The position numbers and the translations under genes were made by a program. The notes beneath the pieces were generated by a model. It was given only the letters and a program-made list of their open reading frames with translations. It was not told the DNA's origin and made no database searches. This document shows positions 6,462-54,419 of a stretch of 64,000 bases of DNA, piece by piece. Source of the DNA: a virus (taxonomy: Duplodnaviria; Caudoviricetes); IMG/VR virus record IMGVR_UViG_3300032301_000360, positions 3,819-67,818 of that record; one strand, written 5' to 3'. How positions within the stretch are numbered: the first letter of the stretch is position 1; each line of letters opens with the position of its first letter.

Positions 6462-6473
6462 TATTTATAAATA
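6462..6473. promoter_or_regulatory. back-to-back T4-type late promoters
   Basis: Perfect palindrome TATTTATAAATA, giving TATAAATA on both strands between divergent genes. Confidence 0.7.
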
Positions 6474-48266: not shown

Positions 48267-49331
48267 ATGCAAATAACCACAAATGCTATCACAAACACTG
48301 TGCCAGCAATGGATCTTTCTCAAGTGGATCTAACCCACACTGTGGTGATGACCGATCTACATCTAGGTTTGAAAAACAATAGCAAGCAACACAACGAATG
48401 GTGTGTGCAATTCATTCAGTACATGATTGAACAAGCCCAAGCTGAAAACATTAAAACCTGTTTGTTTTTGGGCGATTGGAGCCATAATAGAAGTTCAGTG
48501 AGCGTGGTCACACTCAATTACAGCTTGCAATGCTTGCGAATGTTGAGTGAAGCTTTTGATAATGTGATCATGATCTTGGGCAATCATGATTTGTATTTCA
48601 GAGACAAGCTGGACATGCACTCTATTCCGTATGTGCAGGAATTTAACAACATTCACTTGATTACAGAAATCACCACACAAGGTGACTGTGTGTTTGTGCC
48701 CTGGCTGGTGGGTGATCAATGGAAGCAGATTCCCAAAATCAAGCAGCCATACATGTTGTGTCATGCAGAAATTGCACGCTTCAAGATGAACGCCATGGTG
48801 GAATTGCCTGATCATGGTGGGTTAAATTCGGATCACTTTAAAAATCAGGAACTTGTGATAAGCGGACATTTCCATAAGCGTCAACGCAAGGGCAAAGTGT
48901 TGTACATGGGTAATGCTTTTCCTCACAATTATTCAGATGTGCATGATGATGATCGTGGTTTCATGTTCTGGCAGCCTGGTTCAGAACCTGTGTTCCATGC
49001 ATGGCCAGGAGCACCCAAATATCGCACATGGGAATTAAGCCAGGTACTCATGAATCCCACCACATATATTGATGATCACACATTTGTGAAGATCAATGTG
49101 GATGTCAACATGAATTATGAAGACTTAAACTTTGTTAAAGAGTTGTTTGAACAAGAACTTCAAGCCCTGGATGTCACATGGGTGCACGCAAAACAAGGTG
49201 CAGACACAGAGTTCACAGATGAGGACATACAGTTTGAAAGTGTGGACCAAATTGTACTGGATCACTTGAATGCCATTGAGAGTGTCACCATGGATCGCCA
49301 GCTATTAACCCAAATCTATCAGAGCATTTGA
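48267..49331 (+). CDS. gp47: recombination endonuclease subunit, gp47/Mre11/SbcD
   Basis: DLHLG, GDW, GNHD, HAE, SGHFH phosphoesterase motifs. Confidence 0.93.
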   Translation: MQITTNAITNTVPAMDLSQVDLTHTVVMTDLHLGLKNNSKQHNEWCVQFIQYMIEQAQAENIKTCLFLGDWSHNRSSVSVVTLNYSLQCLRMLSEAFDNVIMILGNHDLYFRDKLDMHSIPYVQEFNNIHLITEITTQGDCVFVPWLVGDQWKQIPKIKQPYMLCHAEIARFKMNAMVELPDHGGLNSDHFKNQELVISGHFHKRQRKGKVLYMGNAFPHNYSDVHDDDRGFMFWQPGSEPVFHAWPGAPKYRTWELSQVLMNPTTYIDDHTFVKINVDVNMNYEDLNFVKELFEQELQALDVTWVHAKQGADTEFTDEDIQFESVDQIVLDHLNAIESVTMDRQLLTQIYQSI

Positions 49332-51106
49332 GCATGATCAACTTTAAATCCTTAACCATTAAGAACTTCCTTTCTGTAGGTGCAGTAACTCAGTCTGTGG
49401 ATTTTACTAGCACAGGTATCACTCTTGTGTTAGGTGAAAACTTGGACCTGGGTGGTAACGGCTCACGTAATGGTGTGGGAAAAACTGTGATCTTTAATGC
49501 ACTGTCGTATGCATTGTTTGGTCAAGCCATCACCAACATTAAGCGAGACAACCTGATCAACACCATCAACAAGAAAAACATGGTGGTGAGTGTGGAGTTT
49601 GATATCAATGGGCAGGTTTATCACATTGAGCGAGGCCGTAAGCCCAACTTTTTCAAGTATGTGGTGGGTGACAAAATGGTGGACACTCAAGGCGCAGATG
49701 AAGCACAGGGTGAGAACAAAGAGACACAAAAAGAAATCGACACAGTGTTGGGTCTTACTCACACCATGTTCAAGCATATTGTGTGTTTGAACACTTATAC
49801 AGAACCATTTTTGCAAATGGGTTCCGGAAAACAACGAGAAATTATTGAAGAGCTGTTGGGAATCACATTACTCAGTCAGAAGGCAGAAAACCTCAAAGAG
49901 TTGATCAAAGTCACAAAGACCAAGATTGAACAAGAAGAGTTTCAGATTCACACCATCAAAAACAGCAACCAGCGTATCCAAAACACCATTCAAGACCTGG
50001 AAAAGAAGATCCTCACATGGGATAACAATCATGACACAGAGTTGTCTGGATTGATGCAAGCCATACAAGAATTGAGCAACTTGGATGTGGTTAACGAAAT
50101 TTCAGCACACAAACAAAATCAACTCAGATCAGAAAAGCAAGCCCAAGCACAAATCTTGAAGAGAGAACTTGCAAGCAGGCAGACAGTGTTGACTCAGTTG
50201 GAAAAGAATCAAAATCGGCTATTGCGTGAATATGCACAATTGCAATCACACACATGCCCCATGTGTGGCAGTCACATGCATGATGCAAAACAGGACCAAC
50301 TCACTTCACAGATGGAACAGGAGATCACACAACAAGATGCACAAATCCAGGAACTTGCGCCTCAAGTTGCAGAGTTTACTCATGCATTACAGGAACTCAC
50401 CCAAGAGTTGACAGATCAGCCTGTACAAGACACTTGGTATCAAACACTGGAACAGGCATATGATCATCGCAACAGCTTGCAACAGTTGGAAAAAGAGGTC
50501 ATCAAGCTCACACAGCAACTGAACCCGTATCAGGATCAAAAACAAAACCTCACAAACACCCTACAAGATATCACATATGATGAACTCAATCAGCTACAAA
50601 CACTCAAGGACCATCAAGAATTTCTGCTCAGACTGTTGGTGAACAAAGACTCTTTTATACGCAAAAAGATTATTGATCAAAACTTGGCCTATCTGAATCA
50701 CAGGCTCACAGAGTATCTGAATGTGTTAAGCATTCAACATGATGTTCAGTTTGTGAATGACCTGAGTGTGCAGATCAATTACATGGGTCAGGACATGGAC
50801 TTTGCACAGTTGAGCAGAGGCGAGAGCACCAGAGTGATCCTGGCACTTTCATGGTCATTCAGAGACATCTGGGAAAACATGAACACCAGCTTGAACTTCA
50901 TGGGTGTGGATGAGCTGATTGATGTGGGACTGGATGCCACAGGTGTGGAAAAGAGCATGGAAGTGCTCAAGACTTTTAGCAGAGATCGTCAAAAGCATGT
51001 GATGCTGATCAGTCATCGTGACGAGCTCTTGCCGCGTGTGGATCGCGTACTCACAGTGGTCAAGGAGGATTCATTTACCAGGCTGCAAACAGACTGGGAA
51101 TCATGA
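49328..51106 (+). CDS. gp46: recombination ATPase subunit, gp46/Rad50/SbcC
   Basis: NGVGKT Walker A, CPMC zinc hook, LSRGE signature, DELID Walker B, ISH. Confidence 0.95.
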   Translation: MSMINFKSLTIKNFLSVGAVTQSVDFTSTGITLVLGENLDLGGNGSRNGVGKTVIFNALSYALFGQAITNIKRDNLINTINKKNMVVSVEFDINGQVYHIERGRKPNFFKYVVGDKMVDTQGADEAQGENKETQKEIDTVLGLTHTMFKHIVCLNTYTEPFLQMGSGKQREIIEELLGITLLSQKAENLKELIKVTKTKIEQEEFQIHTIKNSNQRIQNTIQDLEKKILTWDNNHDTELSGLMQAIQELSNLDVVNEISAHKQNQLRSEKQAQAQILKRELASRQTVLTQLEKNQNRLLREYAQLQSHTCPMCGSHMHDAKQDQLTSQMEQEITQQDAQIQELAPQVAEFTHALQELTQELTDQPVQDTWYQTLEQAYDHRNSLQQLEKEVIKLTQQLNPYQDQKQNLTNTLQDITYDELNQLQTLKDHQEFLLRLLVNKDSFIRKKIIDQNLAYLNHRLTEYLNVLSIQHDVQFVNDLSVQINYMGQDMDFAQLSRGESTRVILALSWSFRDIWENMNTSLNFMGVDELIDVGLDATGVEKSMEVLKTFSRDRQKHVMLISHRDELLPRVDRVLTVVKEDSFTRLQTDWES

Positions 51107-51511
51107 ATCTGACTGGGTGCGTTTGAGGATCTGTTGTTTGTTGTTTTCAAATAATGTTTCAAACTCACACCACACATATGAAAAATATCTGGTGTGATTG
51201 GCCACCTGTAAGGCAGGTAGCCATTTTGCATCAAAACATGCCCATGTGCCCTTGTGGTTGATTCGCACCACCACAAACCACATGTCACCTTCATCTACTG
51301 TGACCAATGTTTGTTTGATCCATGTGTCCAGTTGAAGAATGGGTGCATTACCACTCAGCTTCTCAAAGGGGAACGACTTATAAAACTTACTCTCAATCAC
51401 CAGCTTGTGCATGTGACTGGGTGGAATAATGTCACTCTTGAAATAGTTGATCTGTTGGGCATCCATGCCACTCTTGCGATGAGCGTTTGACCCTCCCAGA
51501 AACGCACCTGA
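51101..51511 (-). pseudogene. C-terminal part of the resident Holliday-junction resolvase, disrupted by insertion
   Basis: The frame extends upstream of the tracked ATG as SGAFLGGSNAHRKSG-MDAQQINYFKSDIIPP...IESKFY (D...ExK); in-frame TAG at 51530-51532 upstream, so the N-terminus is missing here. Confidence 0.75.
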
Positions 51512-51530
51512 ATAATTTATTGCTGCCGCC

Positions 51531-51538
51531 TATAAATA
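51531..51538 (+). promoter_or_regulatory. T4-type late promoter TATAAATA
   Basis: Exact consensus; second TAAATA at 51543-51548; AGGAGG SD before ATG 51567. Confidence 0.75.
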
Positions 51539-51566
51539 CACCTAAATAAATGTTTAGGAGGTAGTA

Positions 51567-52400
51567 ATGAATTATTCAAAGATATATAACAGGTTGATTG
51601 AATCTGCTCAAACCAGATTTGGTCCAGTATCATCATATACTGAAGTCCATCATATCCTTCCACGATGCATAGGTGGTAATGATAATGCATCCAACCTTGT
51701 GGTATTAACACCAGAAGAGCATTATGTGGCCCACCTGTTGTTAATGAAGATGCATCCAGATAATACAAAGCTTGTTTATGCTGCATTTATGATGACTGTA
51801 GGAAAACACAGAAATAATAAATTATACGGATGGTTGAAACGTAAGAGATTTGAAAATCCTATGCCACTCTCCACTAGACTCAAAATTAAGGAGAAGAGAG
51901 CTCTTCAAGTAATGAGTCCCAGGTCTGAGGAAACCAAACAAAAGATGAGGGGACCTAATCCAAAAAAGGCTAGGAAAGGTGAGCTCAATGGATTTTATGG
52001 CAAGAAGCACAGTGCGGAAACTTTGGCTATTCTAGCAGTCAAATGTCCTAACCCAGGTTTAAAAAGAGGACCAGATACCATTCAAAAACTAAAAGACTCG
52101 TTTACTGATGAGCGTAGAGCTGAGGCATCTCGACGTTTAACAGAAAGGAATAAAAACATAACTGAAGAGCACAGACAAGCTACCAGGAATTCAAATATTC
52201 GAAGAGGGATAGAGAAACAAAAGACTAAAATGCGTGCCAATCTGCCTCTATATAAGAGCATATTTGAAAACCTAACAGCTGGATATGAGGTTAAGCATAT
52301 AGCAAAACACCTTGAAGTTGACTATGCATTAGTGTGGAATATTAAGACTAAATGGGAGTATTACTTGATAGCATTTAAGGAAGTTTGTGATGAACAGTAA
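51567..52400 (+). CDS. HNH homing endonuclease with NUMOD3-type DNA-binding motifs
   Basis: YTEVHHILPRCIGG.D.ASNLV.LT.EEH.VAH.LL; later FYGKKHSAET. Confidence 0.9.
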   Translation: MNYSKIYNRLIESAQTRFGPVSSYTEVHHILPRCIGGNDNASNLVVLTPEEHYVAHLLLMKMHPDNTKLVYAAFMMTVGKHRNNKLYGWLKRKRFENPMPLSTRLKIKEKRALQVMSPRSEETKQKMRGPNPKKARKGELNGFYGKKHSAETLAILAVKCPNPGLKRGPDTIQKLKDSFTDERRAEASRRLTERNKNITEEHRQATRNSNIRRGIEKQKTKMRANLPLYKSIFENLTAGYEVKHIAKHLEVDYALVWNIKTKWEYYLIAFKEVCDEQ

Positions 52401-52878
52401 AAATAAGGGGAATACTTACGAAAGAAAGATATCAAATTTACTCTCAGGTAGATTTAAAACCCTGTTAAACGAGGACAAAGGATTCAGACGCAATCCTGAT
52501 AGTGGCAGCTATTTCGGAGGCAGCAATTCTACCAAATTGCAAACACATAATTTGGATTATGCAGTATTTGGCGATATAATTTGTCCCAAAAATTTCAAAT
52601 TCACTATAGAGTGCAAGCACTATAAGTCCCCTCCATCATTTAAATCCATAGTCGAACAAAAAGTAACAAGTTGGGATGGATGGATTGATCAAGCACTACA
52701 GGACGCAGCTAGTGCTAAAAAACATCCTATGATACTGATCAAATACAACAATGTTGATGACTTTGTCATGCTACAAGAGCCATTGGCGACAGGAAACCTT
52801 ATTCTAACATACAAAGGATTTCATTTGTATAAAATTGGGGAATTATTGGTACAACCGGACAGCTACTTTTTCGAATGA
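52387..52878 (+). CDS. Holliday-junction resolvase-like PD-(D/E)xK nuclease (cassette-borne copy)
   Basis: SKNKGNTYER...RRNPDSGSYFGGSN...GDIICP...IECKHY...WI.QA. Confidence 0.8.
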   Translation: MMNSKNKGNTYERKISNLLSGRFKTLLNEDKGFRRNPDSGSYFGGSNSTKLQTHNLDYAVFGDIICPKNFKFTIECKHYKSPPSFKSIVEQKVTSWDGWIDQALQDAASAKKHPMILIKYNNVDDFVMLQEPLATGNLILTYKGFHLYKIGELLVQPDSYFFE

Positions 52879-52960
52879 ACTTGGCACCAAACAGTTCTGT
52901 GAGAAATTTGGCTATCTTGAGTTCGCCCATGTTACCTTTGCTCTTACCTTTTGAAGGCAT
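52871..52960 (-). pseudogene. N-terminal part of the resident resolvase (not in ORF track)
   Basis: Hand translation MPSKGKSKGNMGELKIAKFLTELFGAKFIR, homologous to SKNKGNTYERKIS...FRR of the cassette copy; CAGG SD upstream. Confidence 0.8.
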
Positions 52961-53060
52961 GATGTGATGTACCTGTGTGAAATATATGGTGTCATAGTTA
53001 TCTAATCGATTGACGCTGCATATGCGAATACCCTAGCATGATTCAGTAAGGACGTCACAC

Positions 53061-53774
53061 ATGCATTATAAACCCAGATTCAGAAACAGCAGCTTCACCG
53101 TGTGGGTGGAACCAGCAGATCAGCTACGCCTAAAACAATTCGCACAACATGAGCTGGTGTTTTACAACACCATAATTGAAGCCATGGAAAGTCGCACCAG
53201 GGCATTCAGCAAACAAGTTGCAGAAGCCACAGATGCACAAATACAGATCATGTGCGACTCTATGATCACAAAACAACTGCCGGCCTCAGGTGCTTTGCCA
53301 GACTGGATGCAATTTGTCACACAGCAAATTCTCAAGCCCAAGTTAGCAGTGCTGCCTGAATGCAAGCACATGATGACACGCAGCCTCATGCAGTTTTTTA
53401 GAGAACAAGCTGTCATCTTAAAAGATCCCATCAATAACGATAAATTGGAAATCAGCTACAAAGTGGCTCCCCAAAATCTCAGCAAACTGGATTCCACCAC
53501 CAAGCGACATTTACAGATACCCAGATCTTGTGTGAGGGTACAATGGGATCCTGCACAGGAAGTCAGTTTGATTCACACACAATTGACCACCATGCCATTA
53601 AAAGTTCCCAATGTGAACCTTAATGAAAATGAGGGTTGGCATCTCATGGTGGTGCGCCAGGAACCAGGTCGGTATGTGCCACCTGACACGCCCTGGATGG
53701 TGGAATTCAAACAAACACACAATCAATACTTGATCAAACTCACGGACGCAGGATCAAACAGGCCCACCATGTGA
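53061..53774 (+). CDS. TnpB/Cas12-like recognition lobe only (WED-REC-WED), no RuvC
   Basis: RNSSFTVWVEP...VFYN...QFFR...LMVVRQEPG...W parallels TnpB RNKAFVVRLYP...FVYN...NFFR...NVTVRR..EG; the ORF ends where the RuvC-I GxDxG motif would begin; AAGGA SD. Alignment by eye against recalled TnpB sequence. Confidence 0.6.
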   Translation: MHYKPRFRNSSFTVWVEPADQLRLKQFAQHELVFYNTIIEAMESRTRAFSKQVAEATDAQIQIMCDSMITKQLPASGALPDWMQFVTQQILKPKLAVLPECKHMMTRSLMQFFREQAVILKDPINNDKLEISYKVAPQNLSKLDSTTKRHLQIPRSCVRVQWDPAQEVSLIHTQLTTMPLKVPNVNLNENEGWHLMVVRQEPGRYVPPDTPWMVEFKQTHNQYLIKLTDAGSNRPTM

Positions 53775-53789
53775 TCTGATCAGATCACA

Positions 53790-54190
53790 AACTCAGACCA
53801 TACCAGCTCAGAATGGCAGTACACTGCCTGTGTCCGATCTCCGCGAAGGGAGGTAAACCACATGGAGGAAGTTGTTAGCTCACCTCCGCTGGACAAGCTA
53901 ACAGAAAGGAAGAGACCTCTCACAGGCTGCTGTGATGTTTCTACATGTGATCGCCACAGCTCAAGGGTGGTCAACATGTGCAGGGGTCATTGACCCCTAA
54001 CCGAGTAGGGTTGTGACGTAGTCACGTAATGCCCAGAAGCGAGCTTGTTGTGGGGGAATGTAGGTACTCTGCCCCCACGATCTATCTGGATCACAAGCGA
54101 CTTGAGCTAGGCGGACACCTCATCGAAAGGCCGTTAAAAAACACTTCTCCCCTCACCGGGGAGAAGTGTGGCTCCGTCCTATCGAAATGG
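53790..54190 (+). ncRNA. putative large structured ncRNA (omega-RNA-like or new class)
   Basis: At least 8 helices found by eye, nested, including an H-type pseudoknot; no credible ORF; strand inferred from the upstream gene; ends approximate. Confidence 0.6.
54135..54169 (-). terminator. intrinsic terminator for the gp26/gp51-like transcript
   Basis: Perfect 12-bp stem ACACTTCTCCCC/GGGGAGAAGTGT with 5-nt loop, followed on the minus strand by a U-tract (plus-strand A-run 54136-54141). Confidence 0.75.
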
Positions 54191-54192
54191 AT

Positions 54193-54372
54193 TTACTTCT
54201 TAGGGGTTTTATATGCATCAGCTTGGGCCTGAAAATGAGTATTAATCTGTTCATTTAGATGCGTTAATTGTGCCATAGAAATCGAATACGCATCAATATA
54301 TGATATGCCCCCATTCATGTAATAAACCACATGACATATATCTTGTTCTATTTGCTTTATTGCCCGCTCCAT
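54193..54372 (-). CDS. gp51-like baseplate hub assembly protein (possibly the -1 frameshift extension of the gp26-like gene; not in ORF track)
   Basis: Hand translation MERAIKQIEQDICHVVYYMNGGISYIDAYSISMAQLTHLNEQINTHFQAQADAYKTPKK; the frame is open back across the gp26-like stop to 54441. Confidence 0.7.
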   Translation of the reverse strand: MERAIKQIEQDICHVVYYMNGGISYIDAYSISMAQLTHLNEQINTHFQAQADAYKTPKK

Positions 54373-54419
54373 GTCTGAAAGTAATTTGGTTATGTCCTCT
54401 GCATTACCTGATAGGAGCG

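Follow-up and report, generated by a model that had tools for sequence, protein, structure and literature searches.

A cassette carrying an HNH endonuclease gene and a diverged Hjc-like nuclease gene interrupts the resident Hjc-like nuclease gene of an uncultured giant phage: probable homing without an intron or intein

In the present work, we examined a 64-kilobase (kb) stretch of DNA (here called the window) from the IMG/VR record IMGVR_UViG_3300032301_000360, a 67.8-kb record, rated ca. 16% complete, of an uncultured freshwater giant phage; the sequencing runs that contain this stretch are freshwater or aquatic metagenomes. We found that a resident minus-strand gene for a PDDEXK_15 (Hjc-like) nuclease, here named res1, is broken at codons 29 to 33 by a mobile cassette of 1361 to 1362 nucleotides (nt) (51513/4-52874, plus strand). 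The cassette lies inverted relative to res1 and contains a TATAAATA box, an HNH/NUMOD3 homing endonuclease gene and a complete second nuclease gene, res2. By comparison with related loci (designated by L numbers), we located the insertion site and its empty allele and showed that the cassette has recently spread horizontally, that both of its genes are under purifying selection and that the res1 stumps are decaying. We consider it very probable that the insert is a free-standing HNH element which homes without an intron or intein, breaking the conserved res1 and supplying a diverged but complete replacement in the form of res2. A splicing-free homing strategy of this kind had been proposed in an earlier note made from the window sequence alone, and it is supported by the empty allele, the transfer of the cassette to locus L179, the common insertion point, the conserved motif in which that point lies and the losses of the C-terminal stump.

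The two remnants of res1 stand on either side of the cassette. The C-terminal stump (51101..51511, minus strand; codons 34 to 169, 136 codons in all) begins SGAFLGGSN and matches positions 32 to 109 of the Pfam family PF24608, and the N-terminal stump (52875..52960, minus strand; codons 1 to 29, with the helix bearing the catalytic E13) matches positions 2 to 28 (E values for the two window fragments, 2.7e-6 and 7.6e-4). Both are collinear with the intact 169-amino-acid (aa) gene at locus L084, to which the N-terminal stump is 87% identical (L084 codons 1 to 30) and the C-terminal stump is 96% identical (codons 34 to 169); the two halves therefore correspond to a single intact gene, and the earlier claim that a resolvase gene had been split at its conserved R-x-P-x-S-G motif proved correct. 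The same note had the N-terminal piece end in ...GAKFIR. GAKF is indeed host derived, but homology to the host stops at 52875, two bases beyond the GAKF codons, and the terminal I-R is merely a pair of junction codons made up in part of cassette bases. From there, the open frame of the N-terminal stump extends to 52799 over 24 junk codons that are antisense to the last part of res2. The C-terminal stump retains the D...E-S-K residues and an open frame but lacks a start codon at the junction; upstream of SGAF, the window has six codons and then TAG. In relatives of res1, the residues E13, D60, E73 and K75 are invariant, and among 35 intact homologs (47 to 92% identical), so are F28, R30, V31, P32, S34, G35, G39, G40 and N42, which places the cassette in the most conserved motif of res1 (F-x-R-V-P-N-S-G). 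Homing elements typically occupy the most conserved motif of their target.

The limits of the cassette were defined by BLAST and alignment to L084, by empty-site contigs from two sequencing runs (X2 and X3) and by the 98.8%-identical block shared with L179. At L084, flanks that are 95 to 96% identical to those of the window at the nucleotide level enclose an unbroken res1 of 169 aa, reading ...SKFMR-VPN-SGAFLGG..., and the cassette takes the place of 11 to 12 nt of this allele, beginning with the final base of codon 29 and reaching most of the way through codon 33 (R30-V31-P32-N33). Runs X2 and X3 both yielded contigs that jump exactly from 51513 to 52875, skipping 1361 nt, with the 11 letters TAGGCACCCTC in between; as the same runs also contain contigs spanning the cassette, empty and filled alleles coexist in one sample series. 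Relatives with the uninterrupted allele, whose existence the earlier note had left to be checked, are thus represented by L084 and by these contigs. Overall, L084, L177 and L178 are empty, and L091, L092, L093, L179, L005 and the window are filled. Because the architecture is identical in seven independent assemblies, we could rule out an assembly artefact. Immediately beside the junctions, the window and L084 disagree at 17 of the 100 nt on the left and at 4 of the 20 nt on the right, against ca. 1 to 2 differences per 50 nt farther out; this excess resembles a short tract that was co-converted when the cassette arrived.

The mobility of the cassette is most evident from L179, a 79-kb contig from a different study. 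Its cassette differs from that of the window by 16 mismatches in 1362 nt (98.8% identity), whereas outside the cassette, the identity is 70 to 75% on the left, in the adjoining C-terminal piece of res1, and 48 to 60% on the right, beyond the N-terminal piece, with the step falling exactly at the cassette ends. Such a pattern demonstrates, on sequence grounds, that the cassette has recently been transferred horizontally between phages. A similar discrepancy is seen between L091 and L093: their host genes are only distantly related (59% aa identity for the gp46-like gene beside res1, with the synonymous substitution rate [dS] saturated, and 61% for the C-terminal piece of res1), whereas their cassette genes are 88% (HNH; dS, 0.70) and 87% (res2; dS, 0.51) identical. 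In the res1-bearing clade of the gp46 tree, which serves as the host tree, filled and empty genomes interleave, so that at least four changes are required, and on the nuclease tree, all cassette-borne copies fall into one clade (support, 97/98). In other words, the remnants of res1 follow the host and res2 follows the element. Furthermore, six lineages (the window, L179, L005, L091, L092 and L093) agree to within 1 nt on where the cassette is inserted, at a point that can be written as ...AAR-TTC-A(T) / cassette / (T/C)-TCN-GGN...; a seventh lineage, L094, keeps only the N-terminal remnant, which is consistent with the common insertion point.

As the earlier note had recognized, the insert is a 1.36-kb AT-rich segment on the strand opposite to res1 (1361 to 1362 nt; G+C content, 34 to 42%, compared with 43 to 50% in the flanks). 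It is organized as a two-gene operon with overlapping frames, and only ca. 53 nt are noncoding. The statement that this leaves no room for a self-splicing core was upheld, in that a permissive Rfam scan (E ≤ 1) of both strands of 50500-53500 also returned no intron or ribozyme match. The TATAAATA box (51531-51538, plus strand) lies 28 nt 5′ of the HNH start codon, is followed by AGGAGG and resembles a T4 late promoter in sequence. It occupies the same place in five of the six cassette lineages compared, the other, L093, having TATGAATA. The box which the earlier note took for a late promoter is therefore present and conserved, but its role as a late promoter in this phage was not confirmed, since TATAAATA is not enriched: it occurs three times in 64 kb, a count that was reached by 17 of 100 shuffled sequences. 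The only other TATAAATA boxes of the window are two overlapping, opposite-strand copies that form a palindrome at 6462-6473.

The first gene of the cassette (51567..52400, plus strand) encodes a protein of 277 aa with the HNH and NUMOD3 regions attributed to it earlier. NUMOD3 was recognized above its cutoff (E value, 6e-7), the Pfam HNH match fell below the curated cutoff (E value, 0.011), and the protein matched PHROG 655, annotated as homing endonuclease, with an E value of 4.5e-51. The residues E26, H28, H29, N43, H52 and H56 of the HNH motif are invariant among 16 homologs. Although a search of the PDB by sequence with the HNH protein alone gave no match, a profile of its homologs matched the HNH modules of McrA and Cas8f-HNH, at the level of the module only, and positions 137 to 178 of the profile matched the DNA-binding domain of I-TevI (1i3j; E value, 0.002). 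Between cassettes, the ratio of nonsynonymous to synonymous substitution rates (dN/dS) of the HNH gene is ca. 0.1, indicative of purifying selection. Judging from the intact HNH residues, this low ratio and the PHROG 655 match, the endonuclease looks active. In keeping with the class of free-standing HNH homing endonucleases (phage Mob and I-HmuI-like enzymes), we found an HNH motif, a NUMOD-type region, a presence/absence polymorphism and spread that is independent of the phage backbone.

The second gene, res2 (52390..52878, plus strand), starts within the HNH gene, the last 11 nt of which it shares, and ends in a TGA stop codon composed of host bases. It was correctly described in the earlier note as a complete, diverged resolvase gene of the same family: the product matches PF24608 over a complete frame (E value, 2.9e-25) and is 35% identical to that of res1. 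The phylogeny, another of the checks suggested at the time, places the two in separate deep clades of the family tree, and, together with the low identity, this identifies res2 as a xenolog rather than a duplicate of res1. The residues E11, D62, E74 and K76 are invariant among relatives of res2, whose dN/dS of 0.02 to 0.12 again points to purifying selection. Searching the PDB by sequence with a res2 profile gave no match. However, the AlphaFold (AF2) model of res2 (predicted local distance difference test score [pLDDT], 85.5) is closest to the archaeal Hjc and Hje enzymes, which account for all of the top eight rows of the VIA-align comparison (Z, 8 to 9.5); the alignment to 1gef_B covers 102 residues with a Z of 9.5 and a root mean square deviation of 2.7, the Foldseek E value being only 2e-3. 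Given the fold of the model, the names used in PHROG 244 and GenBank, and the position beside gp46/gp47, "resolvase" is a reasonable but putative name. Of particular relevance to what follows, the DNA of res2 at the site homologous to the target is identical to it at only 21 of 51 positions (12 of 24 in the center).

What becomes of the broken gene after insertion can be seen by comparing the filled lineages. The C-terminal stump has been deleted in L092, where ca. 45 nt of it are left, and in L094/L087, and in both cases the HNH gene and res2 have been retained. In L094/L087, the cassette directly follows the gp46 stop codon, and all that is left of res1 is an N-terminal stump of 27 codons, antisense at the res2 end. 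L091 and L092 form the one pair of close relatives in which both members probably inherited a single insertion, and of these two, L092 is without the C-terminal stump. Moreover, the sole in-frame Met codon of the C-terminal stump (residue 21 of the fragment) is a Leu codon in L093. That the C-terminal stump can be lost while the HNH gene and res2 stay under purifying selection shows that the stumps are dispensable. We also considered whether the gp46-HNH-res2 arrangement of L087/L094 might be an ancestral, free-standing form of the element, and we rejected this idea, as L094 retains the 27-codon res1-like stump. When remnants were sought beside 70 other nuclease loci, stumps were found only at cassette loci; weak same-strand matches at L113 and L122 (E values, 0.3 to 0.5) were not significant.

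How, then, might the cassette spread? In a mixed infection, the HNH enzyme would nick or cut the empty res1 allele near codons 28 to 35, and repair of the break would copy the cassette from the filled genome, with the res1 stumps (or, on the left, gp46 in donors of the L092/L094 type) serving as homology arms. res2 would itself be spared, its DNA being very different at the site homologous to the target, and it would presumably assume the function of the broken res1. Insertion would then cost the phage little, since res2 would substitute for the lost gene, while simple deletion of the cassette would leave the phage without the nuclease. With time, the stumps would be deleted to yield gp46, the HNH gene and res2 in succession, with the nuclease gene in the flipped orientation.

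Several points weigh against homing with a replacement as set out above. The cassette of the window and L179 appears to have moved into flanks that are 60 to 75% identical without visible co-conversion, which is unusual for repair driven by homology; transfer into such diverged flanks may have had no homology to rely on beyond the short conserved motif sequences, or it may have passed through unsampled intermediate hosts. Because the record represents only a fraction of the genome, another intact nuclease gene may lie elsewhere, so that the phage may not depend on the cassette in the way envisaged in the earlier note. Homing with a replacement does not account for the founding event, in which the HNH gene and res2 were captured in inverted orientation. 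Lastly, the C-terminal stump of res1 is still open over ca. 135 codons in five lineages (the window, L005, L091, L093 and L179), which would also fit a retained function. Given that the stumps track each host's own allele, we read the open frame as a sign of recent insertion, although the dN/dS of the stumps is unable to separate function from recent insertion.

This last point bears directly on the possibility that res1 persists as a gene in pieces, its two polypeptides reassembling into an active nuclease in the manner of NrdA of Aeh1, split by mobE, or gp39/gp60 of T4, with res2 as an extra passenger. The uninterrupted C-terminal stumps of the five lineages are 54 to 76% identical at the amino acid level with pairwise dN/dS values of 0.08 to 0.21, and the catalytic residues are kept, E13 in the N-terminal stump and D60, E73 and K75 in the C-terminal one. 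However, low ratios are to be expected in any case of stumps that were intact genes until recently and track the host allele. Furthermore, the invariant R30-V31-P32 codons have been deleted, the C-terminal stump of the window has no start codon at the junction and the only in-frame Met is not conserved in L093, and L092 and L094/L087 have dispensed with this stump entirely while keeping the HNH gene and res2. We therefore regard a reassembled res1 as very unlikely. Even less credible, to the point of being extremely improbable, is that the insert is taken out at the level of the RNA or the protein (as a group I or II intron, as an intein or by ribosomal bypass) and that res1 is still whole. 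It is true that ...FIR joined to SGAF... would be in frame. The joined product, however, would lack the invariant V31-P32 as well as N33, and relative to the empty allele, 11 to 12 nt have been replaced, which is not a clean insertion. In addition, neither strand gave an Rfam match even at the permissive threshold, the noncoding portion is too short, both cassette frames are antisense to res1, and the 24 junk codons after the N-terminal stump and the 6 before the C-terminal stump leave no room for intein blocks.

The remaining alternative is that the cassette is spread by ordinary homologous recombination and that the HNH gene is a passenger, inactive or aimed elsewhere (for example, at the gp46 region), in which case the common site would reflect one ancient accident that was passed around. 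The cassette-borne res2 genes do form one clade, so that the insertion may indeed have happened only once, and the junction between gp46 and the nuclease gene is a hot spot for accessory genes in general. Against this, the HNH gene is under purifying selection and has kept its catalytic residues in every lineage. The identity steps lie within a few nt of the cassette ends in backgrounds that are only 48 to 75% identical, and random crossovers would not both fall there; on the host tree, filled alleles are interspersed with empty ones; and, as is typical for homing, the target is entered at its most conserved motif. On balance, we think this alternative unlikely, and homing by the HNH element remains the explanation that we favor.

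The cassette has features in common with several known systems. The closest in mode of spread is the intronless homing of T4-type phages by free-standing endonucleases, of which SegF/gene 56, SegG/gene 32, SegB/tRNA cluster and MobE/nrdB are examples (PMC2988022). As in these, a free-standing endonuclease (of the HNH or GIY-YIG class) has its own expression signals and a presence/absence polymorphism, would spread by break repair with co-conversion of neighboring sequence, and is accompanied on its travels by the neighboring allele of the target ("marker exclusion"). The T4 elements, however, lie between genes, and the recipient is converted to a collinear homologous allele, whereas the element of the window lies inside the target frame in inverted orientation, breaks the gene for good and brings a 35% identical xenolog that is unable to recombine with the target. 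Split but functional genes have been described for Aeh1 (nrdA/mobE), T4 (gene 39-60/mobA) and Aeromonas phage 25 (gene 43) (PMC2988022). There too, a free-standing endonuclease gene with neither an intron nor an intein interrupts a phage enzyme gene where it is conserved and functionally critical; but in those cases, both halves are kept, translated and reassembled, while here conserved codons are lost, the C-terminal half lacks a start codon and has disappeared from some lineages, and a complete substitute is supplied.

A closer parallel for the replacement is found in fungi. In Allomyces and Glomus, mobile open reading frames (mORFs) of the mitochondrial genome carry a foreign C-terminal part of atp6, atp9, cox2 or nad3 (PMC3630166), and with every homing event, the yeast WHO elements bring in a new 3′ end for FBA1 (PMC7282813). 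Like these, the cassette carries a copy of the sequence it displaces, so that the host function would survive while the native piece decays as a remnant, and the diverged copy is presumed not to be cut. Whereas those elements exchange no more than the 3′ part, keeping both frame and orientation, to give a hybrid gene, the cassette comprises a whole, separate and inverted gene with its own expression signals, leaves two remnants, forms no hybrid and resides in a phage; its endonuclease is also of the HNH type rather than LAGLIDADG, GIY-YIG or the intein-derived WHO type. Thus, the cassette works like an mORF or WHO element but is a member of neither family. Finally, the homing endonuclease gene (HEG) islands of ICP1-like phages consist of endonuclease genes that bracket essential cargo genes (PMC10448857). 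Here, as there, an endonuclease gene and an adjacent core gene form one unit of exchange and nuclease genes stand at the borders of recombined segments, but no broken resident copy or inverted insertion into the target is described for HEG islands. We did not find the present design described for phages in the literature; as our coverage was incomplete, we assert no priority.

As far as is known, homing endonucleases have only three safe routes into coding sequence: together with an intron, together with an intein or by leaving two working halves. The cassette would represent a fourth way into coding sequence, in phages, in which the target is broken and a complete, diverged substitute is brought along. 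It would also bridge T4-type intronless homing and the replacement-carrying mORF and WHO elements. The natural evidence for it is unusually clean, with an empty site defined to the base, both alleles in one sample, a nearly identical cassette in a distant background and several stages of decay, and it offers a testable pair of enzyme and target, namely, the HNH protein and the R-V-P-N-S-G codons. There is a practical lesson for annotation as well: short "hypothetical" open reading frames (ORFs) flanking endonuclease genes may be the stumps of a displaced gene.

A broader, albeit speculative, implication concerns gene order in giant phages. At ca. 57 giant-phage loci (among L099-L176, L095, L096 and L003), the Hjc-like nuclease gene is either codirectional or convergent with gp46, and its orientation requires at least 5 to 8 changes on the gp46 tree and at least 3 to 5 on the nuclease tree. 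Cassettes of the type described here offer a concrete mechanism for the nonorthologous displacement and inversion of core recombination genes. That they are a general engine of xenologous gene displacement and orientation flips in giant phages is a possibility that we raise with considerable doubt. If it were true, the window, L092 and L094 would look like successive stages of a flip, from an intact convergent gene, through a broken gene with an inverted cassette, to loss of the stumps. The final stage to be expected would be loss of the endonuclease gene, leaving a codirectional foreign gene, and many seemingly native codirectional copies would be fossils of past homing events.

The gene to the left of res1 (49328..51106, plus strand) encodes a gp46-like Rad50/SbcC ATPase (AAA_23, E value of 1e-15; SMC_N; Rad50 zinc hook). 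It is convergent with res1, the 3′ ends of the two genes overlapping by 6 nt, and its product is 99% identical to that of L084 at the amino acid level. Near its 3′ end (51013-51063), 19 differences from L084 are clustered in 50 nt of an alignment that is otherwise 96% identical, a cluster which may, from its density, be a separate small recombination patch. The local gene order, with the gp47/gp46 recombination nuclease followed by the PDDEXK_15 nuclease, an ORF of 237 aa and a gp26-like baseplate gene, is also found in Agrobacterium phage Atu_ph07 (490 kb) and in dozens of uncultured giant-phage contigs. A megablast search of the phage GenBank collection with 49300-54400 found no near relative, the matches at the protein level being to distant homologs only. 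In Atu_ph07 itself (L003:4001-4495; MF403008.1, 470312-470806), an intact nuclease gene of 164 aa has no single annotation in GenBank and is overlapped instead by three short "hypothetical protein" features. To the 3′ side of the 237-aa ORF, the window has a noncoding segment (53780-54190) that is richer in G+C (ca. 52%) and is kept in L084, and ca. 550 nt at the equivalent position of L096 (L096:4520-5070) are likewise noncoding.

Elsewhere, the genes found between gp46 and the nuclease gene are mostly accessory genes rather than endonuclease genes; in L102, L125, L151, L162, L164 and L166, this slot holds genes for a Dam-type methyltransferase, radical-SAM proteins, a PurF-like amidotransferase and a glutamine-synthetase-like protein. 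Other endonuclease genes do occur here, however. L005 has a second endonuclease-like gene between gp46 and the C-terminal stump of res1 (L005:3591-4517, plus strand), whose 308-aa product has three NUMOD3 repeats and a GIY-YIG-like N terminus, and L129 encodes a NUMOD3 protein (1474-2190) at a similar place. The gp46-nuclease locus thus serves several endonuclease genes as a landing pad.

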